From a virus (lineage: Duplodnaviria; Caudoviricetes): 64,000 nucleotides of DNA. The DNA lies in the IMG/VR virus record IMGVR_UViG_3300018063_000004, positions 369 to 64,368 of that record. One strand, 5' to 3'. Positions 3,101 through 54,590 of this stretch are shown here, piece by piece (position 1 is the stretch's first letter; each line of letters opens with the position of its first letter). Both the position numbers and the translations under genes were made by a program. A model generated the notes under the pieces. The model saw nothing but the letters and a program-made list of their open reading frames with translations. It did not search any database and was not told the origin of the DNA.

Positions 3101-3588
3101 GGGGCCACCTGTCCGATAAAGCGGCACGTCAGCCGCGCGTAGTGAACGTGATAGAGACTCGCCAAAATCAAATACCCGAAGCGTTCCCATTGCATCGGGT
3201 CCTGGTGCACCACGTCGACGGTCAAGAGTCCGACCTTGTTGAACTCGAGCGCCACGGACCAGCACAACGTCCGGAAGGTTTTCTCGCTGGCCGCAACATC
3301 GTCGATGCCGAAGACTCCTTCAACCGCGACACCGAAATCGGTCAAGACGCGCCCGGCCTGGCCGGACCCGACGGCGCCGAAACCTGGCCCGCGCGTCGAG
3401 CGCGCCGGCGGTTCGGCGAGTGTCACGCTCCAGGCATGGATCCGACCCTGGCCCGTGTGATACCACAGCGCCCGCGCGCCTGGTTCGTCCCGGACCTCGC
3501 GCCGGTAGTCATAGACCAGCCCGACGCCGGCGATCGATTCGAGCTTGATCTTGACGGCCGTGATCAGACCATCCGGCGTGAGCGCCAT
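3097..3588 (-). CDS. Tail terminator / completion protein
   Basis: 163 aa; synteny after gp10-like neck gene. Confidence 0.65.
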   Translation of the reverse strand: MALTPDGLITAVKIKLESIAGVGLVYDYRREVRDEPGARALWYHTGQGRIHAWSVTLAEPPARSTRGPGFGAVGSGQAGRVLTDFGVAVEGVFGIDDVAASEKTFRTLCWSVALEFNKVGLLTVDVVHQDPMQWERFGYLILASLYHVHYARLTCRFIGQVAP

Positions 3589-4178
3589 TAGGCCACGCCG
3601 CCGCCCTGGCCTTCCGGTTCTGTGAGCGCCCGGCCCATCGCATCGGCCATGATCTCAAACACCCCCTCCACGTTCGGGAGCGCGTTCTTCAGTCCACGGT
3701 CCACGAAATGCCGCGCCTCAATGCCTTTTTTCGCGATCGATTTCGCGATCGCCCATGCCGTTTCCTCGAGTTCAAAATCATCACTCTCCGCAATCCCGAG
3801 CACACGTTCGACCCACAACATGATCGCGTCGACCGGAGGCATTCGTTGGCCTGGCGTCCGGCCCTGGTCGATCACGATCGCATACGGGAGCGAGCTGAAT
3901 ACGCGGCCGTGAAGGTCCTCGATCGTCTGCCCGAGCAGCTCGATCCCTCCCGTGACTGCCGCCGGCGACGCGCCGAAGCTCTGCGCCAGGTTGCCCGTCA
4001 CGCCCACGGGCGCCTCGTCGCTGATTCGGCCGGCGATTTCCTGAAGCGCCAAACTCATATACGCCCGACCGATAGTCGCCAACACGCGTCGGGCTCGAAC
4101 CCCTTCGAACAGCGGCACGTCCCGATACCGAATCTCGATCTGGTCGCCGAACTTCCGGACGATCACGCCGCCAGCCAT
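3588..4178 (-). CDS. HK97 gp10-like neck/tail completion protein
   Basis: APVGVTGNLAQS, PYAIVIDQG, RHFVDRG motifs. Confidence 0.75.
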   Translation of the reverse strand: MAGGVIVRKFGDQIEIRYRDVPLFEGVRARRVLATIGRAYMSLALQEIAGRISDEAPVGVTGNLAQSFGASPAAVTGGIELLGQTIEDLHGRVFSSLPYAIVIDQGRTPGQRMPPVDAIMLWVERVLGIAESDDFELEETAWAIAKSIAKKGIEARHFVDRGLKNALPNVEGVFEIMADAMGRALTEPEGQGGGVA

Positions 4179-4180
4179 GA

Positions 4181-4924
4181 CTAGACGTGCCACAGTCGCC
4201 CGCGGCCGTGCCGCGTGGCAATCTCGAACTTCTTGATCACGTGCGCACCCGGGATCTCGCCGGCGTCGCCCTTCCCGACGAGCGCGTTGTAGGCCTTCAT
4301 CAATTCTTTTGCGCGTGAGGCCATGATGTCTGACTGCGTCCGCCGATCGATGGTTTCGTTCTGAAATGTGCTGGTGCCCGTGTTTTGCACGTATCGCCGC
4401 GCCGTCATCTCGCAGAGCTTAACCGCGTCCAGGACGATGAAGGCTTTCACGTCGCCAGCGAGAATCGAGGATTGCGCGATATCTGTCGCGTGAATGACGT
4501 GCGGCCGGACATACTCGAGGCGGAGCACACCAGAGGACGGCGTCAACGACAGCAGTTTCAGAACGACCAGCGCGCTCGGTTCCCGCTGGACGAACCAGTG
4601 ATTGCGATCGAGTGGGTCATTGTCTTGGCTGGTGATGTCGAACGGGTGAAAGACGTCCTCGAGACGTGAGCCGCCATCGATCCATTGATCGAGTCCGCTC
4701 GTCGGCAGGATGGTCCCGGCGCCCGAGAGCACGAACCGGAACGCGGCGCTTGGCACGGTGTAGTGAAAGATGCGGAGATTCGGCCGATCGGTCTTGAAGG
4801 TCTCGAGCGCCTGATCGATGGCGAGGTCGTAGTCCGGATCCGCGAGGAGCAGCTTGGCGCCGCCGCCGGGATCTTGCGCCACTTGTTTGGCTTCGGCCGT
4901 GACGGTTGTGCGTGCGACGGACAA
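4181..4924 (-). CDS. Head-tail adaptor
   Basis: Synteny downstream of capsid and decoration genes; 247 aa. Confidence 0.65.
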   Translation of the reverse strand: MSVARTTVTAEAKQVAQDPGGGAKLLLADPDYDLAIDQALETFKTDRPNLRIFHYTVPSAAFRFVLSGAGTILPTSGLDQWIDGGSRLEDVFHPFDITSQDNDPLDRNHWFVQREPSALVVLKLLSLTPSSGVLRLEYVRPHVIHATDIAQSSILAGDVKAFIVLDAVKLCEMTARRYVQNTGTSTFQNETIDRRTQSDIMASRAKELMKAYNALVGKGDAGEIPGAHVIKKFEIATRHGRGRLWHV

Positions 4925-4945: not shown

Positions 4946-5230
4946 TTAGACGTAGACGATGCAGCTCGCGCCGGCGCCCGTGACCGTCACGTGTAACGCC
5001 TTCTTGAAAATGACCGGGATCGTGAGTTCGTCATTGCCGTTCACGACCGCCGCCAGCTCCGCGATGATCGCGCCGGCGCCGTCCACTTCACGAATGACCA
5101 CGGTCGCCGCCGCGGCCGCCGCTACAACGTGCGCCCCGAGCATCACCAGATCGAGGTTGCCTCCGGGGCCCGCGTCAAAGACGATTGCACCAGCGCCGGC
5201 CGCCTGCCGAAATGGTCTGCCTGGTCTCAC
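4946..5230 (-). CDS. Small beta-sandwich virion protein
   Basis: GGAGG RBS; A/V/G-rich beta pattern. Confidence 0.65.
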   Translation of the reverse strand: MRPGRPFRQAAGAGAIVFDAGPGGNLDLVMLGAHVVAAAAAATVVIREVDGAGAIIAELAAVVNGNDELTIPVIFKKALHVTVTGAGASCIVYV

Positions 5231-5843: not shown

Positions 5844-8531
5844 TTACGGGACGATCGCGCCGGCGAATGGCCGGAAGTCCATGATCGCGCCGCCGTAGAT
5901 TTGGCGGATCTTATACGTGAGCTGATCGTTCGAGAACATCGACCCCTGGCTCGGCAAATCCTGCACGAACAACTCCGGGGTTTCTTGGCCGTCCAGGAAG
6001 CCGATCTCGAGCATCGGCGCTTGATCGATCGAGGCCGAGACCCAATAGTTGTTCACGTCCGACCAATATTCAACTACGATCGTCGTGAGATTCAGCTTCT
6101 TGACGAAGTTCGGATCATTGTTGTTTGAGCCGAGCACGCGATCCGACGTGGTGAGCTGAAACGCCAGCTCCTCGAGTTCCGATGGCACGATCAGATAGCG
6201 CGCCGCCAGGCCGATGCGCTTCGCGTTCGACATATCGGCTTGCTGTTTGATTCGCAGCCGGAGCGTCGAGACGTTCGCGCCCGAGAGCGCCGTGGTCACG
6301 ATGTTGTTCCCGTGGCCGGCCGCGGCCAGCGCCACGCCGTCATAGATGAGCGCGTTGTTGTTCAGGAAATCCCACGCGAACTCATGCAGCGTTTGCGCGG
6401 CCGCACGCGCGAGCTTGTTCGGGACTCGGCGGACGGCGCCGACATCGTCGTTCTTGATCATCTCAAGCGTGATCTGCTCGGTCCCGCCGCGCTTCGCCGG
6501 CGAGTAGGTCGCCTCTTCGTCCGTCGGGCTCGTCATGGACGGATACGGCCCGCCCTGCGTGACGATCGCGAGGTTCCCGTAGCCGCCGAACCGCATACGC
6601 CGCACGGTCCGGAAGTCGGAGAGTGGGACGACCTCGGCGATGGTGCCGCGCCAATTCGCCAGGCCGCTATCCGCGTAGTCCTTGAGCATCCGGCGCGTGA
6701 TGCTATCGCCGAGGATCTGATCGAAGCTCGACGTCGTGAGCGATTCCGTCAGTCTGATTTCCGACAAGCGCCGCAGAACAGCTTCGCTGATCTTGCCGTT
6801 GACCTTTGTATCGCCCGTGATGTCAACGTAGATTTCCTTGAAGCTCTGGAGCGGCTTCATCGGATCGAAGAAGTTGGCGAGCCGTTCCCGGACTTTGGCC
6901 GTCCCGTCCGTCACGATTTGCACGCGCGGGAGGCCGACGTGTGGCATGACGAGGTTCGCTTCGCGCAGCGCGCCCACGTCCTCGACCGCTTCCTTGATCG
7001 CGAGTGTGACCTCGTCCTCGGTCGGAAGCTGGCCTTTGCCGATTCGCTCCGTGAACTTTTTCCGCAGACGTGTTTTGAACACGTCGGGCAGCGCGCACTC
7101 GAGCAGCGATCGCTCGAGCATCATGCCGGCGAAGTTCCGAGCCCCGGACTGATTGCTCGTCTCGAGTGCCGTGATGCGCTCGAGCAGCGCGGTGCGATCG
7201 GCCGCCTCGGTGATCGTCGCGGTTGCGCCGGCAGCCGGCACGGCGGCCGCGGCAGGCACAACAGCAACGACAGGAACGACAGGTCGAGCGGCGAGCGCCT
7301 CAGTGAGCAGACGAGTCGCCGTGGCCTCGTCGCACCCTTCCGGCACGGTCACGCCGGCCTTTTTCAACGACTCGATCAAATGCTGCAACATGCGAACGTC
7401 CTCCTGAAGCTGTGGATTGGCCGCTTCGGATGCCACGAGACGGAGCACGCGCCCGCCCGCGGACGGATTCAGAACCCAATCGACCGATTCGACTTTGCGG
7501 ATGGCGTTGACGTCGTAGGCCGCGCCGTCGGCGAGCTGCACGACCTGGCTCTCGGCCCGCACGTCATGTGAGAGCCCGAAAAAGTCGGGATGGCCTTCCT
7601 GGTAGGCGTCGAGTAATTCCTCCCGGAAGTGTTTCTTCGTGACAACGGCGGTGCCCGCCAGCGCCAGAAGGCTGGCGCCGCCATCGGCTTCGGTGGTGCT
7701 CGAGAGCACGACCGGCCGGATGTTTTTCGCGAAGCCCATCGCTTCAGCGCCCGAGCGGCCGAACGGCCCGGTCTCGAGCTTGTGATCGAGAAACATCCGC
7801 GCCTTGTCGTAGAGCGGCGCGGCTTCGGCCAGGACCTTCCGGTTGTAGCGGTTGCGGTTCTTGCTCATGCCTTCTTGAATGAGCAGCACGTCCCACAACT
7901 TGCCCGTTGGCGCGCTCCCGGCGGCCTCCGCCACGGGCCCGAGGACCTCGGCCTGGATCCGGATCAGGTTGCCGGCCGCGGTGGTGATGATGGACTCGAG
8001 AAAAGCGCCCTCGCGCACGGGCGCGTATTTTTGAACGACTTCGATCGGTTCGCCCTTGAGTTCAACCGTGCCATCGATCGTCCAGGTGTAATCGATCCGC
8101 CAGAAGCCTGGCTTCCCGACGCCGATGCTTTCCTTCCGGAAGATGACGTAGTCGTCATAGGTCGCGACGGGCCAGACATAGCCCATGCGACCGTTGTCTT
8201 TGGGCAGGAAGCGTTGCCGAAGAGCATCCGACACGCGCGACAGGCGTTCGTCCAGCGAGAGCCCGTTCTTCGCCTCAGCCGTGCGTTGAAGGATCGCTTC
8301 GAGGATCCAACTATTCACACTCGACTCCTTGTTGCGTCGGATGAGGTCACCGATTGGATTGCCAGCACGATCGAGGACCTGCACAGAAACCATGTCGGCG
8401 GCGATGATTTCTTCGGCTTCCGCCTTCGCTTTGATCGCGCCGCAGATCCGACGCGCGCGCTCGGCCGATTTGCCCTGACTGACGTGATCGGCCACGCACG
8501 CATCAAAATCCGTGTAACCGGCAAACGGCAT
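5844..8531 (-). CDS. Prohead protease-scaffold-major capsid polyprotein (Mu gpT-like capsid)
   Basis: Protease-like region (MFLDH, FGLSHD, SVDWVLNPSAGG), helical scaffold, capsid motifs (SDFR, ITLEMIKNDD, YLIVP, GFLDG..PE); likely ATG 8531 just after the terminator U-tract. Confidence 0.9.
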   Translation of the reverse strand: MPFAGYTDFDACVADHVSQGKSAERARRICGAIKAKAEAEEIIAADMVSVQVLDRAGNPIGDLIRRNKESSVNSWILEAILQRTAEAKNGLSLDERLSRVSDALRQRFLPKDNGRMGYVWPVATYDDYVIFRKESIGVGKPGFWRIDYTWTIDGTVELKGEPIEVVQKYAPVREGAFLESIITTAAGNLIRIQAEVLGPVAEAAGSAPTGKLWDVLLIQEGMSKNRNRYNRKVLAEAAPLYDKARMFLDHKLETGPFGRSGAEAMGFAKNIRPVVLSSTTEADGGASLLALAGTAVVTKKHFREELLDAYQEGHPDFFGLSHDVRAESQVVQLADGAAYDVNAIRKVESVDWVLNPSAGGRVLRLVASEAANPQLQEDVRMLQHLIESLKKAGVTVPEGCDEATATRLLTEALAARPVVPVVAVVPAAAAVPAAGATATITEAADRTALLERITALETSNQSGARNFAGMMLERSLLECALPDVFKTRLRKKFTERIGKGQLPTEDEVTLAIKEAVEDVGALREANLVMPHVGLPRVQIVTDGTAKVRERLANFFDPMKPLQSFKEIYVDITGDTKVNGKISEAVLRRLSEIRLTESLTTSSFDQILGDSITRRMLKDYADSGLANWRGTIAEVVPLSDFRTVRRMRFGGYGNLAIVTQGGPYPSMTSPTDEEATYSPAKRGGTEQITLEMIKNDDVGAVRRVPNKLARAAAQTLHEFAWDFLNNNALIYDGVALAAAGHGNNIVTTALSGANVSTLRLRIKQQADMSNAKRIGLAARYLIVPSELEELAFQLTTSDRVLGSNNNDPNFVKKLNLTTIVVEYWSDVNNYWVSASIDQAPMLEIGFLDGQETPELFVQDLPSQGSMFSNDQLTYKIRQIYGGAIMDFRPFAGAIVP

Positions 8532-8610
8532 GGCCAAAAAAAAGAGCGCCCGAAGGGCGAGCTGTGAAGCTCGAGTCCTTCGGGCGCTCGGGTCCTCCGC
8601 CGCGCCCGGC
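8532..8610 (-). promoter_or_regulatory. Attenuator copy 2 upstream of capsid gene
   Basis: CGGGCGC-ggCGGAGGACCCGa-GCGCCCG versus terminator GAGCGCCCGAAGG..CCTTCGGGCGCTC-T8. Confidence 0.85.
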
Positions 8611-8629
8611 GGGATCACGATCGATCGAC

Positions 8630-8833: not shown

Positions 8834-9244
8834 CTAGACTCCGGCCAAAAAATGCACCCGCGAACACTGACACCCGAAGCCAGGATCTGGTCCGCCAGCG
8901 TCCTCTCTGAACAAAATCTCGCCGCACGCACCCGGGATGTCCTCGGTCATCAACACCTTGACTGTGACCCCAGTCGCCGCGTCGACGACCTCCCGCGGCC
9001 GCTGCCGGCGTTGCTTGCACGCCAGAATGAGCGCGAGGTCTTGTCGATCGAGTTCTTCGGCCAGGCCGACGAACATCCGACGGACTTTCTTGACGAGCAC
9101 AAGGCGCCGGCGGCCGTCCCCATCCCGACCTCCTTCGGCCGCCTTGCCGTCCTCGGTGCCGCCCTCTGGGAGAGCAGCCAGGTGCGCCGGCACAATGAGA
9201 CCGCTGGCACGTTCGGCGAGTTGTCCCGAGAGCGACGCGTTCAT
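8834..9244 (-). CDS. Hypothetical protein with possible Zn site
   Basis: Coupled ORF; C..C..CxC residues. Confidence 0.55.
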   Translation of the reverse strand: MNASLSGQLAERASGLIVPAHLAALPEGGTEDGKAAEGGRDGDGRRRLVLVKKVRRMFVGLAEELDRQDLALILACKQRRQRPREVVDAATGVTVKVLMTEDIPGACGEILFREDAGGPDPGFGCQCSRVHFLAGV

Positions 9245-9753
9245 GTCACACGAGGATCGCGAATGAGATACGCGCGCAACCGTTGCCGGGCCCTCGAGAG
9301 CGCCCGTCGGTCGGTTGCGTCATGTGCTACATAGACCGTGCCGAGCCCCAAACTGTGACAGATCAACGTTTTGTCATGGGATTTCAACCGGTTCAGCGCG
9401 TCCGTGAAGGCCTCGTGCCGACGTGCGTTTCGGAGATGTTCGTCTGGATCGACCACGGCCTCATGGGGATTCGTGAAGGCCGCCAGGCGGTCGCGCGTGC
9501 GCTCAAATCGGGCGCGGTCCGCGTGCGTATCTCGAGCGACAGACACCGTCACGCGGTAGATCCAGGTGCGAATGGCGCCCGGATCCCGAAGGCCGTTCAT
9601 GCTCTGACAGAGCCGGAGGCCGACCTCGGCGACGACGTCGGGCGCTTCATCGTGCCCAACCTCCTGCACGGCAACGGCTTCCACGAAGCCGCGGTGCTGC
9701 GCGAACACGTCGCCGATGCGTTTGCGATCGGCTTCATTCAATCGCACGCGCAT
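9241..9753 (-). CDS. ECF-type sigma-70 factor
   Basis: Region 2 (APDVVAEV..L, TWIYRVTVSVARD) and region 4 end (LSRARQRLR). Confidence 0.75.
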   Translation of the reverse strand: MRVRLNEADRKRIGDVFAQHRGFVEAVAVQEVGHDEAPDVVAEVGLRLCQSMNGLRDPGAIRTWIYRVTVSVARDTHADRARFERTRDRLAAFTNPHEAVVDPDEHLRNARRHEAFTDALNRLKSHDKTLICHSLGLGTVYVAHDATDRRALSRARQRLRAYLIRDPRVT

Positions 9754-10568: not shown

Positions 10569-10805
10569 ATGGCCGTGACGATCCAGAATGGCAACGATCA
10601 GGCGACGTTCGATAACAGCCGATGGACCTCGGCCGATCCCCGGCTCGAGGCGTTCCTGAACAGCATCATTCCGATCGATCGGATCTCGCCCTCGGTCGGC
10701 CGGCCTGATGTGTTTGTCGCCAGGGACGCGATCGCGCGTCTCGGCGATGGCGCAAAGATCGTCACGGTCAGCACAGAGACACTCCCTCCGGACGCCATAC
10801 CCTAA
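10569..10805 (+). CDS. Small convergent protein, candidate immunity partner of the MuF peptidase
   Basis: 78 aa globular-looking ORF filling the gap; stop overlaps MuF stop; TATCCT -10-like box upstream. Confidence 0.6.
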   Translation: MAVTIQNGNDQATFDNSRWTSADPRLEAFLNSIIPIDRISPSVGRPDVFVARDAIARLGDGAKIVTVSTETLPPDAIP

Positions 10806-12757
10806 CGGAACTTCCCGCGCAGTAGCTCGAAGATGAAATCGAAATACTCCGGATCCGCTTTGGCGAGCGCCGCCGGATCCGCAAAGAAATATTCGATGCC
10901 CATCGAGACGATCTCCGTAGCCTGCAGACCGTAGTCCTTGCCCATATAGGGATCGAGGAACTTATCCTTCCGCGCGCGCTCGTGCGGTTCATAGCCGTAG
11001 CCTGGCTTGAGCGTCGACAACGGCGTGAGCGCCTCGCCCTTCGTGCGCGCCTCGAGGAACCGGAACGCCGCGGCCTTCACGTCCGGCGCGTTGAACTCGA
11101 GGATATGCCCGATCTCATGCGCGATCGTTCTGGCGGTTTCGTTCATGTTCAGATTGATCGAATTGTTTTGCTGCCTCGCGAATGCCCTCGAGACGAACGT
11201 GCCGGACCCATCCCGCGCGCGATCGACGACGATTGAGCTGATCGTGCCGTGGCCAACGAGCTTTCCGACTTCCTCAAGCGTTTGACGGATCCGCTTTGTG
11301 ACTTCAGCGCCGTTAATTGGCCGGAACCGGATCGTTCGTTTATTGAATGCCTGATCAGTGCCAAACTCGGCGCCGGGCGCGATGTGAAATTCGATCGTCC
11401 GCCGGTCTGTAACCGGAACGGCCAGGCGCCGACGAAGCGCCCTGGTTTCTGCGTCAAGGTTCGCCTTGAGCTGTCGCTGGAGCCGGTTCATTTCTCCGAG
11501 GAATCGATCCACGTCCTCAGCCGCGGCGATATAGCGTGGATCGGCACGAATCACTTCATCGGCGAGCTTCTCGAGGCGCGTGTTGGCCGCCAGCCATTCG
11601 TGTTGCGCGCGTAGATGACTGTCCGCCAGGTTGCGGCGTTGCTGATCAAACCGATCGGCGACCTTCGTGAGCGAGTGACGCACGTCGGCCGCTGACCGCG
11701 GCGGCCGCGGTGGCCGCGGCGCCGGCCTCGGCACGACGGGCGGTTCCCCCACCACAGCGGGCGACGGTTCTGGGGTGACACGGCTCCTCGAGGTCGAGAA
11801 CGCCCGGAGTTCGTCCAGGTTGAAATCGACGAAGGCTCCACAGCGGCACATAATTGTTGCCCCCGCGGCCAGCCGGCCCGCCGGCGTCGCGTCTGGATCT
11901 ATTGGAAAACGCAAGAGCGCCACACCGAGCAGCTTCGGCGGTTTGCCTGGCGCTTCGCTGTGAACATTGATCCGGAACCGATCACGCACCGGGATCCCGT
12001 GCCCGCGCGCGTAGGTCTGCGCGGCCTCCAGATGCCCCTGACGCACCCGCGCATCTCGAGCGGAACGCCAGCCCTTGCGGAGAAAGGGGAACTGATTCGC
12101 CAGGCCGAGCAAGCGATCGAAGGTGGATTCGTTCAGCACGCGACCAAGTTCCGTTCGCACCATTCGCTCGGCCTTGAATTCGGCCGCATCGAAGCCCGCG
12201 TCCCCGATGTTCGCGGCGAGCTTCCGGAGTTCATCGAAACTGGCCTCGCCAGCGATCGCCGCACGCCGCACGCCCTGGACGAGCTGATTCCGGAACCGTT
12301 GCATGGGTTCGGAGAGCAGATCGGCCGTCAAGTCAAACGCGCGTGTGGCCAGCGCGCGATCGAGCTGCGGCGCCCGGCTGAGTGCCACGCGCGCTGCCCG
12401 AAGCGGTTCATCCGCGCTCGAAGCTCCGAGGTCCTGTGCCTGGCCGAAGGCAGCCTTGGTGCCCGCGAGGAGATCGGCTTGCGCTTCGGCAATCAAGCGA
12501 TCGATATCAAGGATCAGACTCGAGGCCGTGAAGCGTCGGAACTGGGAGGCCCCGGCGGAGGCGAGCACGCCCTGCAGCTCGCGCTTGAGTTGCTGAAGGC
12601 GAGCCAGTAGTCGCTGGACGACGTCGCGCTCGAGCCCGAGCGCGGACCGTTGGACCTCACGTCCAGCCGAGGCGCCGGCTGCCGCCCGCCTGGCCGGCGA
12701 GTTCGGATCAGAGGCCTCATAGGCCGGCGCGAGCGCCAGGTTGCCCCGTGTCAACAT
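10802..12757 (-). CDS. MuF/gpF minor head protein with C-terminal zincin metallopeptidase
   Basis: AERMVRTE, KGWRSARDARVR..H, IMCRC; Pro-rich linker; AHEIGH and ATEIVSMG. Confidence 0.85.
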   Translation of the reverse strand: MLTRGNLALAPAYEASDPNSPARRAAAGASAGREVQRSALGLERDVVQRLLARLQQLKRELQGVLASAGASQFRRFTASSLILDIDRLIAEAQADLLAGTKAAFGQAQDLGASSADEPLRAARVALSRAPQLDRALATRAFDLTADLLSEPMQRFRNQLVQGVRRAAIAGEASFDELRKLAANIGDAGFDAAEFKAERMVRTELGRVLNESTFDRLLGLANQFPFLRKGWRSARDARVRQGHLEAAQTYARGHGIPVRDRFRINVHSEAPGKPPKLLGVALLRFPIDPDATPAGRLAAGATIMCRCGAFVDFNLDELRAFSTSRSRVTPEPSPAVVGEPPVVPRPAPRPPRPPRSAADVRHSLTKVADRFDQQRRNLADSHLRAQHEWLAANTRLEKLADEVIRADPRYIAAAEDVDRFLGEMNRLQRQLKANLDAETRALRRRLAVPVTDRRTIEFHIAPGAEFGTDQAFNKRTIRFRPINGAEVTKRIRQTLEEVGKLVGHGTISSIVVDRARDGSGTFVSRAFARQQNNSINLNMNETARTIAHEIGHILEFNAPDVKAAAFRFLEARTKGEALTPLSTLKPGYGYEPHERARKDKFLDPYMGKDYGLQATEIVSMGIEYFFADPAALAKADPEYFDFIFELLRGKFR

Positions 12758-12791: not shown

Positions 12792-13160
12792 TCATAGCTC
12801 TCCCAGGAGAACGATGATGTCGTCGTCCGCTTTCAGGCTCGCACGACCGCGCACCGGGATCCGTGTGCTCTCGAGCACCACGCCTTCGTCGAGCAGCCAG
12901 CCCTGGAAGGCTTCCACCCGCACGCGGATCGGCACAATCATCGCGAACAGTTCGAGCGCCTCGCCGACGAGCGCGGCCGTGTGGCTGTGAATGCGACGCC
13001 GGACCAGCTCACTTGAGAGCGTGACGGCGTCGGTGTCGAGCTGGCCGAGGAACCGATGGATCGTGAACCGAACACGCGCGATCGGACGCCTGAACAGATC
13101 GCCGGCGCTCTGACCGGCTGAGACGACGACTTCCCACAGCGAACGGAGCCCGAGTAGCAC
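12792..13160 (-). CDS. Hypothetical head-region protein
   Basis: GGAG RBS; in operon. Confidence 0.55.
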   Translation of the reverse strand: MLLGLRSLWEVVVSAGQSAGDLFRRPIARVRFTIHRFLGQLDTDAVTLSSELVRRRIHSHTAALVGEALELFAMIVPIRVRVEAFQGWLLDEGVVLESTRIPVRGRASLKADDDIIVLLGEL

Positions 13161-13171
13161 TATGTCTCCGT

Positions 13172-13759
13172 TCAGATGATCGTCAATTCGATACGCACCG
13201 TCGTTAGGCCCACAGGCGCCAGTGCCGTCGTTTTGACCATGACGCCTTGGCCTTCTCGCAACACGATCGGTTGACCGCCGCTGTTCTGAAACTCGTAACA
13301 GGGTGGCGGGTTCATAATCGCCCGCGCTTCTTCCAGATCCGTCGCACAGCCGCCTACGTCAAAGGTCACCACGGGATCGGTCGTGCAGGTATGGGACGAC
13401 GTGATCTGCGCGGGAACGGCCGGGTTTTGCGAATCCAGCGGCTGGATCGTGATCGCCGTGCAGGTCGTGCCGACCGTAGACGTGACCGAGTAGGTGAAGT
13501 GCGCCGCGATGCCAGTGACTGTGGCCGTATTCGCCGGGCTGATATAAATCCCGACAATGCGGACGATTCGCCCAGACCCACTGTCGTTGAACAGATTTAA
13601 ATAGTCTTTCGACGCCGCCGCCGTCGCGCTGATGATCGTCGTGTTGTAGGTAGGCGCTTGACTCGGGTAGGTCGCTTGACTCTGGCCAGGCTGAACGCCC
13701 TGGGCCACCAGAGCAGCCATGCACACAACGAGCGCGATCATCCGTTGGAGTCTCGTCAT
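13172..13759 (-). CDS. Secreted jelly-roll-like protein A
   Basis: N-terminal signal peptide (GQS|Q); LFNDSGSGRIVR..PIVLREGQG; 4 Cys in mature part. Confidence 0.75.
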   Translation of the reverse strand: MTRLQRMIALVVCMAALVAQGVQPGQSQATYPSQAPTYNTTIISATAAASKDYLNLFNDSGSGRIVRIVGIYISPANTATVTGIAAHFTYSVTSTVGTTCTAITIQPLDSQNPAVPAQITSSHTCTTDPVVTFDVGGCATDLEEARAIMNPPPCYEFQNSGGQPIVLREGQGVMVKTTALAPVGLTTVRIELTII

Positions 13760-14343
13760 CGAATCTCCACCATCATCGTCTTCCGCACGAATCCTGATTC
13801 AGAAGAAAACAAGTTGTGCAACATGGCCCCTTCACCAGGTCGAAGAATAATCGGCGTTTGTCCTTTGACTTTGTAGTCAAAACACCAAAAGGGCGGGGCC
13901 TTTGTCGCAGATTCTTCATTCAACAGGCTGCACCCGCCATAGCGAAAGACCTGTGTTGGGTTCGCGGTGACGCAGTTGCCTCTGCTAAACGTCACCCCGG
14001 TCACGCTCGGATTTGTCGAATCAAGCGCGTTGACTGGAAGCGTGACGCAATCCACTCCGGCAGTGGAAATGTGCGTCAGGGTGTAGACCACCTGGACGCC
14101 AGCATTCACGCCAGTCGGCTGCGTCGCCATGTGAATCCCTAAGAGGCGCACGACCTTTCCGGAACCAGCCGTGTTGAAGATGATCAGGCAGGGAAGGACG
14201 GGACAGCCGACCGTAGACGTAAAGGTGTAGGTAAACGCCTGCTGCCGCGACCAGTCCGGCGTCAGTTGACCGCGCGCAGGCCGGACCAGGGCGATCCCGA
14301 GTCCGACGATGACCAGCGCCGTCGTGAATCGCGTCCAGGTCAT
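13756..14343 (-). CDS. Secreted jelly-roll-like protein B (paralog of A)
   Basis: Signal peptide (ARG|Q); IFNTAGSGKVVR..PIILRPGEG; 6 Cys. Confidence 0.75.
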   Translation of the reverse strand: MTWTRFTTALVIVGLGIALVRPARGQLTPDWSRQQAFTYTFTSTVGCPVLPCLIIFNTAGSGKVVRLLGIHMATQPTGVNAGVQVVYTLTHISTAGVDCVTLPVNALDSTNPSVTGVTFSRGNCVTANPTQVFRYGGCSLLNEESATKAPPFWCFDYKVKGQTPIILRPGEGAMLHNLFSSESGFVRKTMMVEIR

Positions 14344-14999
14344 TGCTTCCCCTTGAATGCGTAGTTGATGACTGACGCGGCACCAGCCTGCACGCGGATC
14401 CCGCCGGTGAAGATTTTCCCGTTCGGGTGCCATTCGATCTGCGAGTTCGGCGGCACGAAAATGCTGTTCACGTAGGTGAACGGCGTGCCGGCATTGTCCT
14501 TGATGATCACGGTCGTCGTCTGCGTGCCGATGTTCGTCACGAACATCCAGTCCAGGCACGTCGCCGTGGCCGTGACCACCGTATCGGTCGAGGGCATCGC
14601 CGCGTTCGTCTCAAAGTTCGTGGACCCACAGCCGGATGGATCGCCGCCGGCTCCCGACAGCACTTCCACTTTGAAGCCCCCCGCCGCACCCAACGCCGTC
14701 GGTAGGGGCACGACTGTGCCGCCGGAAAAGAGTTCCGACGCCAGATTGAAATTCGTAGCCGTTTGCTTAAGTTGTTGCCCTTGCGATCCGAAGACGACAC
14801 CCAACAGCCGCGCCCCCCGATCCGACACATCGCGCGGATCGATGTGCGCCCCGCCAAAGACGATCTTGAACGGCCAGGCGTTCGCGTCCGATGTCGTCGC
14901 CGCTTCGCCTTGACCGACGACTTGCGCGTGAGCGGCTGCGGCGAGCAAGAAGAAGAGTCCGAGCACGATTGCGACCATTCGATAAATCGCGTTCATCAT
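14340..14999 (-). CDS. Secreted fibre-like protein
   Basis: Signal peptide (AHA|Q); AWPFK..IDPRDVSDR fibre-like segment plus beta-sandwich; 2 Cys. Confidence 0.7.
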   Translation of the reverse strand: MMNAIYRMVAIVLGLFFLLAAAAHAQVVGQGEAATTSDANAWPFKIVFGGAHIDPRDVSDRGARLLGVVFGSQGQQLKQTATNFNLASELFSGGTVVPLPTALGAAGGFKVEVLSGAGGDPSGCGSTNFETNAAMPSTDTVVTATATCLDWMFVTNIGTQTTTVIIKDNAGTPFTYVNSIFVPPNSQIEWHPNGKIFTGGIRVQAGAASVINYAFKGKQ

Positions 15000-15475
15000 T
15001 TCTCTCCTACTAATTGCGCGTTGACGGCTGGCGCGCTCCCGGCGTTCCATTTGGCCCCGACCATCGTCGCCCGGCCAAGCAGCTTGAACTCGGTCATGTT
15101 TCGTTGCAGCTCATACTCGTTCAGGTAAAAGCTTCCGGCCGTGTTCGTCAGCGTCACCTTCTGTTTCGTCGTGGTTAGGTTGCAGAGCAAAATCCCAATC
15201 GCTCGGATTGTGTCGGTCGTAATCGCGGTCAGTGCAGCCGGTAGAGTTGTGATCCCGCTGTCGTAGCCTGGCGCCACGTCGCGCACGGCGGCACCAAAAT
15301 CCGTCGGCGCTGGCAGCGCGTTCGAGACTTTCTGGCGTGCGCCGGCTGTTTCTGGATCCCCGACCGAGACGACTTCCCGTTCAACCTCGCCCGCGGCGGT
15401 CGTGAGTCGAACCGTCTCCATTTTCTTGCCGGTCGAATCCGGCGCGACTTGAATGAAGGATTCCGTCACGGCCAT
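14996..15475 (-). CDS. Fibre-like virion protein (no signal peptide)
   Basis: QVAPDSTGKK..VSVGDP; C-terminal domain resembles that of 14340-14999. Confidence 0.65.
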   Translation of the reverse strand: MAVTESFIQVAPDSTGKKMETVRLTTAAGEVEREVVSVGDPETAGARQKVSNALPAPTDFGAAVRDVAPGYDSGITTLPAALTAITTDTIRAIGILLCNLTTTKQKVTLTNTAGSFYLNEYELQRNMTEFKLLGRATMVGAKWNAGSAPAVNAQLVGEK

Positions 15476-15479: not shown

Positions 15480-15920
15480 TTATCTCTGTGTCAAGACGAT
15501 CGTGATCTTTTCGAGATCGCCGATGTGCTCGACCGTTCGCGGCGCCGGAACTAACAAGCCAGTGGCTTTGTCGAGTGTTGTGAATTGTTCGCCGCCGACC
15601 AGTAGGACCGTATCTTTGGTGACGATGAAATAGCCGGCGATCGGGCGATTCGTTGGACCCTGAAACATGAACACGACTTCCGGGTAACGCGCGATCGCCG
15701 GCCGATTCGAGCGCGCGTCGTCGATCGTCCATTCTCGAGGATCGAGACGGACCGCGGCATAGCCCGGGCCCTGGACTTCGGTATAGCGCGCCGCGGTATC
15801 GGTCGGTTGAGGCGTGCGTTCGTTGGTGAAGAGCTTCAAGATCAATTCTTCCGGCTGCCGGCGCGCGAGCTGCACCTCGAGCCGGTAGGTCGTCCAGGCA
15901 TGCGTCGTCATGCCTGGCAT
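15480..15920 (-). CDS. Virion structural protein
   Basis: LKLFTN..P..YTEV..GY..VF..IAGYFI pattern of phage structural/fibre-base proteins. Confidence 0.6.
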   Translation of the reverse strand: MPGMTTHAWTTYRLEVQLARRQPEELILKLFTNERTPQPTDTAARYTEVQGPGYAAVRLDPREWTIDDARSNRPAIARYPEVVFMFQGPTNRPIAGYFIVTKDTVLLVGGEQFTTLDKATGLLVPAPRTVEHIGDLEKITIVLTQR

Positions 15921-17723
15921 CTACAACTCCTTGACATTCTCGGAGCCAATAATCTGGCCGTTGCTATCCCTCACGACCTTTCTCGGCGGCGACGTGAGAT
16001 CGACATTCACGCGAGCGCCCTCCACGGTGACGGCCGCCGGCGCGACGTTGACGGTAATCGGCGCCGCCTGTGCCGACCGCCGGTCAGCGAGACGGCCCCC
16101 GAGGTCCTCAAGCTGCCGACTGATGGTCTCGAGCCTGCCGTGGCCGTTCCCGCCATGGGGTTCCAGCCGCTCCGCCTCCTCCCGCTGCGCGTCCTCATCC
16201 GGATCCGGCCGGCCGAAGGGGGGATTCGTCGGCCGCCCAGGCCGAGCGGCCGCGGCCGCGGCCATGGCTGCTTGCATCTCGTCCGCGCGCCCCTGGCGTT
16301 CTGCGGCGTCCGCGTCCGCCTCGTCCATGACGTCTTGCGCTTTGAAATCGAAGCCCGATCCGAGATGTTTCGTGAGCGCCAGCGTGATGATGGACGCGAC
16401 ACGCCGGCTGATCGTCTTGTTGTTCATGGCCGTATCCATCGCGGCGACGATCTGCGAGAGTGCGCTGCCCACGCGCGAAATGTCCTTCGCCGCAATCTCC
16501 GGCATGTTCACGCTGAATACGTCGGTCGTCAGATGGCGGAACAAGATCGGATTCAACCCGCGCTGTTGCTCGATCCCGAAGCGGAGGATCTGAGTCAGAA
16601 ACCCGCCGAACTCCTTCTGCCGCGCCGCCGGCGTTTTCATGGCCACGTCGTTCTGTCCTTCGATGGTTGCGCGGTTGCTGTCCTGCCAGCCGAACCAGGC
16701 GATCGGCATGCCGAGCGAGCCGGCAATATGGATGGTCAAGAGGCGCGCGGTTTCTGATCGGTCCGTCGCGTTCAAGGCGGGCGAGAGTGCGGTGAGCTTC
16801 TCGTGCTGATTGCGGCCGAACACCGAGCCGGCTGATGGCGTGCCGATCTCGGCCATGCGCTCGGCGATCTGCACTTTCGTGGCGTCCTTGATCTCGAGAT
16901 CCCACACGAAGGCGGAGAGCAACCGGACGCGCTCCACCTCCGCAAACATATATTGATCGAAGAGATCCAGCCAATCGGCCAACGGGAGGTAGTCCGAGCG
17001 CCCGCGGCTCGAGTTCGGCAGATTGTTGATCGCGAAGTAAAAACACTCGCCCTCGAGGCGGCCGGTCAGCGGATTCTCCTGGATGATCGTGATCCGCCGC
17101 GACTCGGCCTCATGCGGTTGTCGTTTGAGCCGGACGAACTCTGGGACGAGGACGTTATCCGGGCGCGTCTCGACTTCCTCAATCTGATAGGGATCGATGA
17201 ACCCGATCGTCGGCACACCCGTCACGTCGTTGACCGCCACGGGCAGGACCAGTTCGCCGTTCAACATCAGCGCATTCGAGAGCTTGCGCGCGCGTTCGCC
17301 GAGCCGATTGATGGGATGGTTCCAGACCTTGCCGACCGCCTCCGCGATCTTCGGGTCTTGCGCGTCAAAGCTGAGGCCTTCGCCCACGACCAGGTCGGTC
17401 TGAGCGGTGATCAGGCGGCGCGCGAAGGGATTCGTTTCGTAGAGAAACCAGGCGATTTCCAGCATCCGATCTTGTTGCATGGGCTGGAGATCGCGCTTTT
17501 TGAACTTCGTCCCGCTCGAGAGCCGGCGGAATTGATAGTCGTCGCTATCGATCATGCCGGCGATGGGTGAGAGCGTGAGCGCCTCGGCGCGCCTGGCGGC
17601 CGCGGCCTCTGACGCCTCCGACCGCCGGAGCGGCAGATCGAGGAACGGTTCCTCCACGGTGGCCACCGCGGTGACGAAGATGGGCGGATGCATAAACGCG
17701 CGGACGCGATCGCGAAAGCTCAT
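15921..17723 (-). CDS. Portal protein
   Basis: Downstream of terminase; NPFARR, NGE, RGRSD motifs; 600 aa. Confidence 0.88.
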   Translation of the reverse strand: MSFRDRVRAFMHPPIFVTAVATVEEPFLDLPLRRSEASEAAAARRAEALTLSPIAGMIDSDDYQFRRLSSGTKFKKRDLQPMQQDRMLEIAWFLYETNPFARRLITAQTDLVVGEGLSFDAQDPKIAEAVGKVWNHPINRLGERARKLSNALMLNGELVLPVAVNDVTGVPTIGFIDPYQIEEVETRPDNVLVPEFVRLKRQPHEAESRRITIIQENPLTGRLEGECFYFAINNLPNSSRGRSDYLPLADWLDLFDQYMFAEVERVRLLSAFVWDLEIKDATKVQIAERMAEIGTPSAGSVFGRNQHEKLTALSPALNATDRSETARLLTIHIAGSLGMPIAWFGWQDSNRATIEGQNDVAMKTPAARQKEFGGFLTQILRFGIEQQRGLNPILFRHLTTDVFSVNMPEIAAKDISRVGSALSQIVAAMDTAMNNKTISRRVASIITLALTKHLGSGFDFKAQDVMDEADADAAERQGRADEMQAAMAAAAAARPGRPTNPPFGRPDPDEDAQREEAERLEPHGGNGHGRLETISRQLEDLGGRLADRRSAQAAPITVNVAPAAVTVEGARVNVDLTSPPRKVVRDSNGQIIGSENVKEL

Positions 17724-18083: not shown

Positions 18084-19658
18084 CTATCGCCGGCGATTAC
18101 CGAAGATGAATCCGGACAGCCGTCGATAGTTCTGATCCGCACGTGGCGCCGGCGCCGGCGGCGCAAACGATCCGACGGCCAGCGTGGCGCCCGTCGATGC
18201 GTGATACGCAATCACAACGGCGTGCGCGCGATCTGGTGAGGCCTTCAGCCCCTTCGGCATATCGGCCGCGGCAATACTCGGATCATCCGGATCCTTGATC
18301 GCGAGCTGGCCCTTCGGCATGTGCCGCGTCCGGAGGTTCGAGAGCTGGCCCTTCAGGCGATCGTCGTCGCAGAGCCCGAACGTCCCGACCTCGCCGCGCT
18401 CCCGAGCCCGGAAGTTGTCCTCGAGCGCCATGCGGAACTTCCAGCAGAGCCAGGCTTTGTTATTCTGGAAATGTTCCTTCCGATCGTCGGTATCGAGCGC
18501 GGACTTCGATCCAAAAATCACGGGCATCGTCGGGATCTGGTGCAGTTTCATGAGCATATCGGTCACGCCGCCGCCGAGGCCTGTGTCATCCACGCCGATC
18601 GTTTGCGCGCCGAGCGCCTCGCCCTCATACAAATCGACGAGCCGCTGCGTGGTCGTGACCAGGTCCGTCTTCGTCCACGTTTTGATCCAATCGATCCGCG
18701 TGCTCGAGCCGAAGGCCGTGGCCGTTTCGTCCACACCGAAGCGCGCCACGTCGCACCCGAGGACCTTGCGCGAGGCGTGCTTGATCGCCGGCTCGAGCGT
18801 CTCGTGCTCGCACTCGCCCTCGAGCTTGCCGCACGTCGCGCAGCGTTGCGCCTGGCCGGCCAGCTCGGCGGCGAGGATCCAATCGAGCCGGATCAGAATG
18901 TCATCGCCTTCGTTCGGGAACTCGCCGAGGACTTTTGCCTGGTAGATCGGCGACGTGACGCCCCATTCCTCGGCTTTTTGCGCCAGCCACTTCCGATCGA
19001 CGCGCGGCGCATCCTCGCCGTTGATATGAATCTGCCGAAAGAACTTCGCGATGCGGCCGAAATGTGATTCATAGAACTTGCCCTGGCGGGATCCCGGCGT
19101 CGACGTATAGAGCCGCTGGCCGCCGGTGGTGAGCGCGCCATCGATGGCGTCATAGATCGGATTCGACACGCCCTTCGCTTCGTCCACAATGAACAACACG
19201 AACGGCGCGTGGAAGCCTTCCATGTTTTGCGGCTTGTTCGACGCGATCCCGATCGCGTGCCAATCGGCTTCATGGCCGCGCACGCTCATTTTCGTTTTCG
19301 AGAGCACGAGATGCTCCTTGAGGCGAAAGCCTTGATGCCATTTCGCGATCTCGGCCCACAGAATGTCTTTGACCTGGCGGAGCGTCGGCGCCGTCGTCGG
19401 CACTTTCGAAAACGGCCGCGTCAGGAGATACCAATAGACAATGAAGGCATCGACGGTCGTTTTCCCCACGCCGTGTCCGCTCCGGACCGTGACGTCGTCG
19501 CCCGCGGCGATCCCCTCCATGATCGCCGCCTGATAGTCCTCGAGTTCGACCGGTTGGCCGTTCTTGTCGCGGAAGAGATCGTGGACAAACGCCCGCGGAT
19601 TCGCGTGATAGCTCTTCCACTTGGCGACCGCAAAGTCGCGGACCTCCGCCGTCAACAT
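18084..19658 (-). CDS. terL: Terminase large subunit
   Basis: SGHGVGKTT Walker A, IVDEA Walker B, STP motif, GCDVARFGVDET, SPDRA. Confidence 0.95.
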   Translation of the reverse strand: MLTAEVRDFAVAKWKSYHANPRAFVHDLFRDKNGQPVELEDYQAAIMEGIAAGDDVTVRSGHGVGKTTVDAFIVYWYLLTRPFSKVPTTAPTLRQVKDILWAEIAKWHQGFRLKEHLVLSKTKMSVRGHEADWHAIGIASNKPQNMEGFHAPFVLFIVDEAKGVSNPIYDAIDGALTTGGQRLYTSTPGSRQGKFYESHFGRIAKFFRQIHINGEDAPRVDRKWLAQKAEEWGVTSPIYQAKVLGEFPNEGDDILIRLDWILAAELAGQAQRCATCGKLEGECEHETLEPAIKHASRKVLGCDVARFGVDETATAFGSSTRIDWIKTWTKTDLVTTTQRLVDLYEGEALGAQTIGVDDTGLGGGVTDMLMKLHQIPTMPVIFGSKSALDTDDRKEHFQNNKAWLCWKFRMALEDNFRARERGEVGTFGLCDDDRLKGQLSNLRTRHMPKGQLAIKDPDDPSIAAADMPKGLKASPDRAHAVVIAYHASTGATLAVGSFAPPAPAPRADQNYRRLSGFIFGNRRR

Positions 19659-49071: not shown

Positions 49072-49419
49072 CTAGGGCGGTGTCACGGTCACGTTGCGTC
49101 GGAGACCGGTGGACCCGACGCAACTATCCTCGTCGAGGGCGGACACGACCAGGTTGTGTGTGCCCGCCACACGGGGGAAGTAGCGGATGCCCGCGATGAC
49201 GGCGTCTTCGTCGTGCGTTTCAATGGTCCAGCCGGCTCGACCATCGCCGATCAAATCTGCGGTGACGCTCTGAATCCGTGTCCCCGTCGGGGATGTCACC
49301 TGGAACACGACACGCCCTGATTGTCCCATCAGGACCGTGGGCGTGTAGCTTTCGACGGTGATTACCGGACCCGCGTGTTCACAGGGACAGGCGGCGGCGT
49401 CAGGGCACGATCGAAAGGG
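49072..49419 (-). CDS. Ig-like domain probably appended by -1 frameshift to the upstream secreted protein
   Basis: C CCT TTC heptamer at 49413-49419; -1 frame open to 49072. Confidence 0.6.
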   Translation of the reverse strand, partial: PFRSCPDAAACPCEHAGPVITVESYTPTVLMGQSGRVVFQVTSPTGTRIQSVTADLIGDGRAGWTIETHDEDAVIAGIRYFPRVAGTHNLVVSALDEDSCVGSTGLRRNVTVTPP

Positions 49420-49817
49420 TTGCTGAGCGTACTCCAGGCGCTCGTCACGGTCGCCCCATTGGCTCTGCTAGCCGCTCGATAAGCCGTTCCAATCGGTAAT
49501 GCCGTGACCTGTGGAGCTATCGTAAACCGGCAGTCCAACGTTGCGTTTGATGGATCGTCAAATCGCGCCTCTGTTGGGTTGCTGATCGTCACGGGAGGCA
49601 CGATCTTGGGCTGGCCGCACGTCACCTGTGCGACCGGATAGACGACAGGCGCAGCGACCGGCGGACCGACGTTCGGATCGGTCACGGTTGACGCAAAGAT
49701 GCCGAGCGAATACGAGACGGTTGGTTCGACCTGGGCGGCGGCGGGCGTGACCGAGAGGAAGAGCAGAACAAGCATGGTGATCAGACGCAGAGCGATCGCG
49801 AGCATGCGGATCCTCAT
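49362..49817 (-). CDS. Secreted FN3/Ig-like protein
   Basis: Signal peptide (AAA|Q); SAWSTLSNPF; 2 Cys. Confidence 0.75.
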   Translation of the reverse strand: MRIRMLAIALRLITMLVLLFLSVTPAAAQVEPTVSYSLGIFASTVTDPNVGPPVAAPVVYPVAQVTCGQPKIVPPVTISNPTEARFDDPSNATLDCRFTIAPQVTALPIGTAYRAASRANGATVTSAWSTLSNPFDRALTPPPVPVNTRVR

Positions 49818-53707: not shown

Positions 53708-54139
53708 TTAGAGGCCGCTCTTTCCTTTCAACGCCACAGTCTCGAACGTATTGATCCCGGCCGCGGCGGTAAATTCAATCGTCATGGCTGTCGCCGGTGA
53801 CCCGACGAGAGTCAAGCCGCACAATTGAATCGGCGGCGCCGAGCCGCCAGCCGAGACCGTGAGTGCCATCGTGCCTTGCCAGATGATCGTGCCGGCGCCG
53901 CTCGCGCCATCACGCACGACGAACGTCACCTGGACAGCGACCGGCGCGACCGCCCCTGCCGTAAGCGTCACCAGGATACATTCGCTGATATGGCGAACGC
54001 CGGTTGCGCCGGCCGCTTTTGTGGCCGTGGCCTGTGTATTCGCCGCCGGCGCGTGAGAGATCGTCCAGGCTCCTTCTTGCGCGCCGGCAACCGAAGTGTA
54101 GAGCAGACACAGCCAGACGAAACACGCGATCCGTTTCAT
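53708..54139 (-). CDS. Secreted beta-sandwich virion-like protein
   Basis: Signal peptide (AGA|Q); 2 Cys in mature part; VVRDGASGAGTIIW. Confidence 0.7.
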   Translation of the reverse strand: MKRIACFVWLCLLYTSVAGAQEGAWTISHAPAANTQATATKAAGATGVRHISECILVTLTAGAVAPVAVQVTFVVRDGASGAGTIIWQGTMALTVSAGGSAPPIQLCGLTLVGSPATAMTIEFTAAAGINTFETVALKGKSGL

Positions 54140-54140: not shown

Positions 54141-54590
54141 TCAATGCTCCCGGATATACGCGTTGTACACGACGCTCGACGCCGGCCCGACCGGCGTTTC
54201 ATAGACGAGTCCATTGGCGCCCGTCGCCGGCGTGAGGATCTCCCGCCCGGGAACCGCCGTCCAGCGGAAGGAATTCCGTTGATGCGTCGGTTCGTCAATC
54301 ATTTCGCTGTTCGCCGTGATCGTCGGATTGACGGTGTGATTCTCGCCAGCGTCGAACTCGGTCTGGAACTCGGCATCGTCGATCCGTCGAGGCGTTGTGG
54401 CGGTCGACGTGCCGGCGGTCGTGCAACGTCGGACGCGCGCGCGGAACATGTTATCGGCGGGCGAGGCATCGCAGCCAAACATGAGATCCCACAGCTCGAG
54501 GCGCCGGGCCCGTGTGGCATCGGCGATCGTATTCCCGACAATCAACGTATTGTCGGCCGTGCGTCGCATCGGAACGTGAAAGTCTGACAT
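54141..54590 (-). CDS. Jelly-roll-like virion protein (no signal peptide)
   Basis: AAGGAGG RBS; RCTTAGTSTATTPRRIDD resembles proteins at 13172 and 13756. Confidence 0.65.
   Translation of the reverse strand: MSDFHVPMRRTADNTLIVGNTIADATRARRLELWDLMFGCDASPADNMFRARVRRCTTAGTSTATTPRRIDDAEFQTEFDAGENHTVNPTITANSEMIDEPTHQRNSFRWTAVPGREILTPATGANGLVYETPVGPASSVVYNAYIREH

Follow-up and report, generated by a model that had tools for sequence, protein, structure and literature searches.

We analysed a 64,000-nucleotide stretch of tailed-virus DNA (IMG/VR record IMGVR_UViG_3300018063_000004, positions 369 to 64,368; hereafter the window) and found five genes, here called A, B, C, F and G, whose products carry predicted signal peptides and even numbers of cysteines. 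Our leading interpretation, which we put forward tentatively, is that C, B and A, likewise F and probably G, are late phage proteins meant for the extracytoplasmic space rather than for virion assembly in the cytoplasm, and that they are released at lysis. The window is nearly all of a 64,368-bp virus record that has direct terminal repeats and is rated complete. Its GC content is about 62.5%, and the minus strand carries almost every gene. On this strand the local gene order is the large terminase (TerL, 18084-19658, from family search), portal, E, D, C, B, A, orf122 and a MuF-like minor head protein.

Read from the translations, A, B, C, F and G all have the n/h/c anatomy of Sec and signal peptidase I substrates, taken here as a positive n-region, 7-16 uncharged hydrophobic residues, and small residues at -3 and -1. 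Each leader opens with 1-3 Arg/Lys, continues with 12-16 uncharged hydrophobic residues and closes with a small-x-small site, after which comes Gln. In A (195 aa; 13172..13759, minus strand) the leader reads MTRLQR / MIALVVCMAALVA / QGVQPGQS|Q, the bar marking the predicted cut, and covers residues 1-27 (GQS|Q, nt 13679-13759), or residues 1-19 with the alternative site LVA|Q. The leader of B (195 aa; 13756..14343, minus strand) is MTWTR / FTTALVIVGLGIALV / RPARG|Q (residues 1-25, ARG|Q, nt 14269-14343), and that of C (219 aa; 14340..14999, minus strand) is MMNAIYR / MVAIVLGLFFLLAAAA / HA|Q (residues 1-25, AHA|Q, nt 14925-14999). F (143 aa; 53708..54139, minus strand) begins with MKR / IACFVWLCLLYTSV / AGA|Q (residues 1-20, nt 54080-54139), and G (151 aa; 49362..49817, minus strand) with MRIRMLAIALR / LITMLVLLFLSV / TPAAA|Q (residues 1-28, AAA|Q, nt 49734-49817). 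Gln at +1 was found in 5/5 leaders of the window. It is also present in related exported proteins of the loci L003, L004 and L064 and of P0002, and in 28/46 exported members of the A/B domain family by the -3/-1 rule. None of the five leaders has a lipobox with Cys at +1, the twin-arginine (Tat) RR pair is absent from all five n-regions, and A, B, C, F and G gave no Pfam match at E≤1 to Por_Secre_tail, which marks type IX cargo. The sole type IX hint was a TM score of 0.43 between the Atlas model of D and a Por_Secre_tail cluster. A crude scan of the approximately 70 called genes found one further strong N-terminal leader, which is lipobox-like and belongs to a 545-aa protein.

C, B and A each begin with an ATG that runs into the stop codon of the gene before it, in the form ATGA. 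The start of C overlaps the stop of D, that of B the stop of C, and that of A the stop of B, so that D, C, B and A are chained. A GGAG-type motif lies 6-11 nt upstream of each start of C, B and A. These overlaps and motifs indicate that the hydrophobic leaders are translated and that the true starts do not lie downstream of them, contrary to a possibility raised in the initial annotation of this DNA. That annotation had proposed signal peptides with cleavage before Gln in three consecutive genes between portal and MuF, and this agrees with the n/h/c leaders and the small-x-small|Gln sites seen here. The same leader pattern that it had noted in F and G (AGA|Q and AAA|Q, with two mature Cys each) was also recovered.

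The mature parts contain four (A), six (B), two (C), two (F) and two (G) cysteines, and the four of A align with four of the six of B. Our recount and alignment thus bear out the earlier claim of even counts (4, 6 and 2) with four aligned Cys between the two paralogs. Among the 151 top members of the A/B family, 43 were leader-bearing by rule, and 3 leaders and 2 internal membrane anchors were added by eye. Two unclear members (P0003 and P0083) were set aside, which left 149 labelled rows, 48 exported and 101 not. An even number of domain Cys (at least 2) was found in 38/48 exported and 26/101 non-exported members, no domain Cys in 10/48 and 42/101, and an odd number in 0/48 and 33/101, respectively. 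The association between export and domain Cys gave a Fisher p of 4.8e-10 over the 149 rows, uncorrected for kinship. Signal peptide and Cys had been suggested for a test of co-variation, and the absence of odd counts among exported members, against 33 of the 101 others, indicates that they do co-vary.

Two cysteines, C100 and C125 in the numbering of A, occur together in 30 proteins; the second alone was found in one protein and the first alone in none. Of these 30 proteins, 26 have signal peptides, 2 have N-terminal membrane anchors, 1 is fragment-like and 1 is unclear. In the FastTree phylogeny A and B fall in a 30-row clade (SH-like support 97) made up of 28 exported and two unlabelled rows, and the export state changed at least six times on supported branches. 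Judged from these sequences, the exported A/B clade appears to have been kept under selection. The shaft motif VxCxxGC was present in 16/48 exported and 3/103 other A/B-family proteins. One of these three has a signal peptide from an internal Met, and another is apparently 5'-truncated. The earlier inference of export and disulfide bonding therefore has well-founded comparative support in the Cys parity of the A/B family, the C100/C125 pair, the Cys pair of F and the uniform Gln. Three fibre-like relatives (P0031, P0062 and P0138) have no leader and begin with a conserved GDG(S/T)(M/V)I(A/G)ILK followed by one membrane-spanning segment. They carry Cys of the exported type and look like type II anchored forms.

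A and B, each with a predicted jelly-roll domain after the leader, are paralogs with 32% identity over 157 aa (E 3e-24), and B matched the A family at an hhalign E of 8.5e-40. No match was found in Pfam or PHROGs for any of the proteins A-I, nor in a PDB sequence search with the A-family profile. The AlphaFold2 (AF2) model of A (pLDDT 86.5) is confident and has a helix at residues 3-19; a loose linker leads to a beta sandwich that begins at residue 37. Exhaustive structural comparison of this model returned generic single jelly rolls only, with Z of 6-7.9 and none reaching Z 8. The matches included a nanovirus capsid, the HFTV1 turret (Z 7.5), YomS (Z 7.4), XepA (Z 7.1), the phage 7-7-1 fibre tip and TNF/C1q, and the KHP40 cement protein was matched at Z 6.7. 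A Foldseek search of the model against PDB gave none at E≤0.001, and 39 uncharacterised phage proteins among predicted viral structures matched it at this threshold. A profile search over 1.84 billion representatives found 2518 clusters at E≤0.001 and 1415 at 1e-10, in which the domain is nearly always C-terminal, in proteins of 160-2200 aa. The A/B family is an unannotated jelly-roll domain that usually ends fibre-like phage proteins. Its long exported members (500-1165 aa) resemble whole fibres, and one long member matched Phage_cement_2 below threshold (21.6 bits against a cut-off of 24). The N-terminal arm of the signal-less relatives is missing from A and B, which argues against the usual capsid attachment.

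In IMG/VR we found 61 loci with the A/B-family domain. A signal-less form of 206 aa occurs in two loci (L007 and L009), after the capsid gene, beside glycosyltransferases and before adaptor or tail genes. In both (L007:4992-8489 and L009:7140-8489) it lies directly 3' of the glycosyltransferase genes in the head module, and 3 nt further is a 544-614-aa protein without known family. L035 has three tandem copies of the A-family gene. A tblastn search against cultured phages gave no match for the 206-aa signal-less member and one for the 174-aa type, the uncultured 'Virus Rctr197k', which leaves no virion proteomics to borrow. Comparison of the A family with C, D, E, F, G, H and I by hhalign gave nothing significant.

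C has a fibre-type motif region and a D-like beta domain containing Cys124 and Cys148. D (159 aa; 14996..15475, minus strand) is signal-less, with an N-terminal motif, FIQVAPDSTGKKMET, then a beta domain of approximately 95 aa, and one unpaired Cys. The C-terminal domain of C matched the D family profile at an hhalign E of 1.8e-4 over 106 columns, while the controls gave 0.06-0.58 (7 other window proteins), 0.023 at best (30 shuffles) and 0.58 (reversed sequence). By profile comparison, C is a distant paralog of D. D has 12 homologs with 47-65% identity, its N-terminal motif is common to signal-less A-family members, and its Atlas model places the beta domain at residues 65-159. MAFFT aligned this motif with 'LLGVVFGSQGQQLKQT' of C, which is repeated in the fibre-like proteins P0031-P0033 and is also common to the fibre of L064. 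The two Cys of C have no counterpart in the D family, and the single Cys of D has none in C. The model of C has a helix at residues 2-29 and a confident beta domain at 125-219, which matches 119 viral models, including a 'virion structural protein' of a Microcystis phage. A complex prediction with D (alignment) and mature C scored 0.00 and was counted neither way. The D family was not found in the genome contigs searched, and the HMMER search for it returned only D itself, in the window's genome.

F consists of its leader and a knob domain with Cys54 and Cys107. This domain corresponds to the C-terminal approximately 120 aa of signal-less fibre-like proteins in three loci (L125-L127; 41-56% identity), and in F the leader stands where these have their shaft, the switch falling precisely on the domain border. 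All three homologs have Ser in place of Cys107, and they contain one Cys or none. G, located beyond the holin gene, has 2 Cys and a Pro-rich C-terminus, and no relatives were found in the viral contigs searched. H (149 aa; 54141..54590, minus strand), a signal-less protein directly upstream of F, had no relation to F, A or D detectable by BLAST or profile comparisons, and the profiles of H and the F family, and of the F and A families, did not match significantly. I (4946-5230) showed no significant BLAST or profile resemblance to the exported proteins. Resemblance to signal-less proteins of the same genome, as first proposed, thus stands for the C-D pair (hhalign 1.8e-4) and is not supported for H and I; the signal-less relatives of A/B and of F sit in other phages. 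The 'virion-like' label likewise holds in part, for A/B (jelly roll, relatives in head modules), C (D-like, virion structural model) and F (fibre knob). Small leader proteins with two mature Cys each also lie beside fibre genes in unrelated contigs, at L126:1837-2316 (AHA|Q) and L004:8540-8917 (LYA|QQ).

In the window six genes (about 3.2 kb) fill the junction between portal and MuF. The upstream border of this cassette is the portal (15921..17723, minus strand), which has 33.5% identity to a protein of Microcystis phage Mae-JY22, and the downstream border is the MuF-like gene (10802..12757, minus strand), which matches phrog_2468 (head morphogenesis, 2.3e-7) and phrog_19443 (minor head protein, 6.8e-16). 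E, the first cassette gene (146 aa; 15480..15920, minus strand), follows directly after the portal stop and has no signal peptide and no Cys; one homolog lies near an A-family gene, in L016. The last gene, orf122 (12792..13160, minus strand), has no family match. Portal homologs were found in 50/61 loci searched, namely 60 prophage loci related by the major capsid protein (MCP) and L064. Of these 60 loci, 48 have a same-strand portal and 25 of the 48 also a MuF match, and in 24/25 the portal and MuF matches are 42-579 nt apart, as adjacent genes. The exception is L117, with a gap of 3,839 nt that holds a diversity-generating retroelement (DGR) and its variable protein. Judged from this comparison of gene orders, the cassette is accessory cargo inserted at the portal-MuF junction. 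The L117 element (L117:4546-7710, a prophage of a Hydrogenophilales metagenome-assembled genome) encodes a 341-aa variable protein, a 133-aa accessory protein and a 579-aa reverse transcriptase. Intergenic gaps in the cassette are -4 to 34 nt. Between 12400 and 18400 we counted 1 promoter-like site (0.9 expected from shuffles) and 6 terminator-like sites (4.9 expected), with a consensus of the sigma-70 type that may not be the host's.

In our preferred reading, C, B and A would be transcribed with the head operon and translationally coupled to the signal-less D, as suggested by the ATGA overlaps and the lack of room for promoters. The leaders would direct the proteins to Sec, and signal peptidase I would cut before Gln, in keeping with the n/h/c anatomy and the uniform +1 Gln. 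The new N-terminal Gln would probably be cyclised to pyroglutamate by a host glutaminyl cyclase. This step follows the published Q-rule, documented for signal peptidase I substrates, in which Gln at +1 becomes pyroglutamate (PMC5837995, PMC10653852). One to three disulfides would form in the oxidising compartment, as suggested by Cys that come together and strictly in even numbers and that the signal-less relatives lack. The products would be compact jelly-roll or beta-sandwich binding modules, of kinds that elsewhere end fibre-like proteins or occupy head modules. They would accumulate outside the cytoplasm and be freed with the progeny upon holin and endolysin action. In the least certain step, the soluble knobs may bind host-surface structures on debris and neighbouring cells, so that receptors would be masked and progeny loss and superinfection limited. 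For this step free binding modules appear most likely and are favoured over incorporation into the particle because A, B and F lack a shaft or arm, the phage has its own tail-tip protein, and XepA provides a precedent. Receptor blocking or decoy action and docking on particles at lysis had both been offered in the initial annotation, and the evidence gathered here would fit either.

Several points weigh against this reading. The assignment of signal peptides is a matter of rules and comparative evidence. When kinship was taken into account, supported branches offered only 5 independent pairs for the test of export and Cys, which left it without power, so that much of the Cys signal comes from one large old exported clade. 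The tight translational coupling to D and the D-then-fibre order in L064 also fit a structural complex, and C has retained a D-like N-terminal motif. Soluble periplasmic proteins cannot reach the outer face of the outer membrane before lysis, and masking would therefore act only at or after lysis. The binding target of the proposed modules is putative. Bacteroidota make low use of Shine-Dalgarno sequences, and Shine-Dalgarno-like motifs were found at 30/57 crude gene starts, against a background of 0.154. Such frequent motifs, together with 62.5% GC, fit poorly with Bacteroidota, the phylum of the Q-rule.

The +1 Gln in 5/5 leaders points to a host lineage with a high Q-value, as far as sequence can tell. 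The Q-rule was published for Bacteroidetes, with scattered high values elsewhere (PMC5837995). The host is probably not a member of Bacteroidota. Relatives of the window's MCP occur in prophages of many phyla, with 31-47% identity. The A domain was found in 0/3 and 0/301 genomes searched, and no tRNA genes were found in the window.

Related loci bear on the alternative that survives best, though we consider it unlikely: assembly in two compartments, in which the exported proteins would fold and form disulfides outside the cytoplasm and attach to particles at lysis, with the signal-less D, and perhaps H, as the particle-borne dock. L064 has the order portal, a 120-aa gene, a D homolog (62% identity), a 727-aa leader protein, a 157-aa open reading frame (ORF) and MuF. 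The N-terminus of orf122 is similar by eye to that of this ORF, which has the equivalent position; tblastn gave no match. The 727-aa fibre starts with the leader ICA|Q, its N-terminal repeats resemble C, and the motif VNCTGGC occurs in it twice. Thus the order of D and then a signal-peptide fibre is kept in L064, as this alternative would expect. The fibres of L003 and L004 also carry leaders (GWS|QQ and LQA|QS) and have all four Cys, and a small signal-less gene precedes each, that of L004 sharing the motif TDANAWPVKV with C. After the L004 fibre come a second leader protein (LYA|QQ) and then terminase. Docking is also consistent with the location of the window genes in the head operon and their coupling to D, with the D-like N-terminal motif and domain of C, and with the resemblance of exported members of 500-1165 aa to whole fibres, their signal-less relatives being in head modules. 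On the other hand, A, B and F begin at a domain boundary without attachment shaft or arm, the phage has a large signal-less tail-tip protein of its own (1397 aa; 54605-58798), and a literature search, limited in reach, found no tailed phage that adds periplasmic proteins to its particles. A broader form of this idea, in which finishing particles in two compartments would be a widespread habit of the large exported knob subfamily, with pyroglutamate-capped proteins and D-like docks, seems to us slightly more doubtful still.

Returning to export with release at lysis, a role as lysis or release accessories that act on wall or membranes late in infection is improbable, although PBSX XepA offers a model for it. 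This jelly-roll protein is made late, is exported and does not become part of the particle (PMC6834076). XepA and YomS matched the A model (Z 7.1 and 7.4), the Atlas XepA cluster is a distant feature neighbour of D (score 0.77), and F and G adjoin the lysis genes, the endolysin (52618-53145) and the holin (50137-50862; family named after a cyanophage), both identified by family search. However, Z below 8 is generic for jelly rolls, no Pfam XepA match was found at E≤1, C, B and A are distant from the lysis genes, and the mechanism of XepA is itself unsettled. XepA and YomS, of the Bacillus subtilis prophages PBSX and SPbeta, resemble the window proteins as we read them in being phage-encoded, late, exported and missing from mature particles, with jelly-roll domains (PMC6834076), but there is no sequence relation to XepA (no Pfam match) and the Z values are within the generic range. 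XepA forms a pentameric dumbbell and belongs to a lysis cassette of a Gram-positive host, whereas the window proteins are encoded in the head operon and are predicted to have cleavable leaders of the classic type, Gln at +1 and disulfide pairs.

To about the same degree we doubt that these are lysogenic-conversion morons, exported proteins by which lysogens would change their surface or keep other phages out. Phage lambda provides classic exported morons in its late regions, lom and bor. The integrase (41489-42592; family match 1.1e-17) indicates that the phage is temperate, and the cassette is inserted at a cargo hot spot. Signal-peptide genes of Porphyromonas phages that follow the Q-rule have been proposed as host-envelope modifiers (PMC10367356). 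Against this, the gaps of -4 to 34 nt and the promoter- and terminator-like sites at shuffle level leave little sign of separate expression, which is weak evidence where the sigma-70 consensus may not be the host's. Least probable, and very unlikely in our view, is that the proteins are not exported, in which case the leaders would stay on as membrane anchors, or be propeptides that the prohead protease takes off, and the Cys pattern would be incidental: leader cleavage is a rule-based prediction, capsid-protein leaders of Porphyromonas phages can be mis-called signal peptides (PMC10367356), and P0031, P0062 and P0138 have an internal membrane anchor instead of a leader, but 5/5 leaders have a positive n-region, 12-16 hydrophobic residues and small-x-small|Gln, even-only Cys counts are confined to leader-bearing members, and the anchored relatives would likewise place the domain outside the cytoplasm.

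Other known systems share single traits with the window proteins. Lambda Lom and Bor and the Shiga toxin subunits are signal-peptide proteins within or beside late or structural operons, and Shiga toxin acquires its fold and its disulfides in the periplasm and exits the cell at phage lysis. None of them, however, is paralogous to a virion fibre or decoration domain, Lom and Bor are expressed from promoters of their own, and the window proteins, unlike Shiga toxin, gave no toxin indication. T5 Llp and Cor-type lipoproteins are exported and mask the phage receptor, which guards progeny against debris and the cell against superinfection. We favour the same mechanism for the window proteins, but Llp and Cor are lipoproteins unrelated to receptor-binding or decoration domains, whereas the window proteins have no lipobox and have Gln at +1. 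DGR variable proteins present one binding fold, signal-less on phage particles and with a signal peptide on cell surfaces (PMC6199706). In L117 a DGR occupies the same portal-MuF site as the window cassette, but the variable proteins have a C-type lectin fold and the window has no retroelement. Tailed phages of Porphyromonas gingivalis, like the window, have genes of unknown function in which a predicted signal peptidase I cut would leave Gln exposed, and this has been interpreted as an adaptation to the secretion system of the host (Matrishin et al. 2023, PMC10367356). The available part of that paper has no fold or Cys analysis and no link to virion domains.

Tailed phages are taken to assemble all virion parts in the reducing cytoplasm, and phage proteins with signal peptides are usually classed as lysis proteins or unrelated morons. 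Here, domains of the fibre tips and head modules of other phages recur with export signals and conserved Cys pairs, and do so in four phage contigs and at least 30 clusters of the family. Release as binding modules would make them a new and common phage route to receptor masking or surface conditioning at lysis; docking on particles would make them an exception to the rule of cytoplasmic assembly. Either way, an unannotated family of approximately 2500 clusters gains a testable function, and the +1 Gln habit provides a handle on the host. Exported phage proteins as such are already known, as morons, toxins, spanins, XepA and the Q-rule genes of Porphyromonas phages (PMC10367356). In print, supplements excepted, we found no virion-type knob domain with a large subfamily that is exported, bears disulfides and sits in head operons, and the literature searched gave no case of signal-peptide virion proteins in tailed phages, the supplementary gene lists of the Porphyromonas phages excepted.

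Elsewhere in the window, the protease and major capsid protein are fused in one 924-aa gene (5844-8618, minus strand; phrog_29592, 1.1e-152), and the closest cultured relative of this protein is from Microcystis phage Mae-JY22 (33% identity). Between this gene and MuF the head operon contains a sigma-factor-like gene (9241-9753, minus strand), which encodes a 170-aa sigma-70 region-2 protein. Family search identified Neck1 (3588-4193) and the tape measure (59610-63773). Across the window ends the order is tape measure, the 1397-aa tail protein, H, F, endolysin, the 545-aa protein, holin and G.

The MuF-like protein (651 aa) has a C-terminal domain with a HEIGH zinc-protease-type motif at residue 547, which matches phrog_33618 (1.7e-24) and, weakly, a metallo-protease PHROG. 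This domain at 10802-12757 may be a MuF-fused effector domain. The 545-aa protein between endolysin and holin (50908-52545, minus strand) begins with the lipobox-like leader LSVTLSC and continues with a Pro-rich region; CarboxypepD_reg is then matched below threshold (27.3 bits against a cut-off of 32.3), and the protein exceeds the usual length of outer-membrane spanins. Between F and the endolysin (53417-53704, minus strand) lies a 95-aa protein with 7 Cys in CxxC pairs, which is zinc-ribbon-like.

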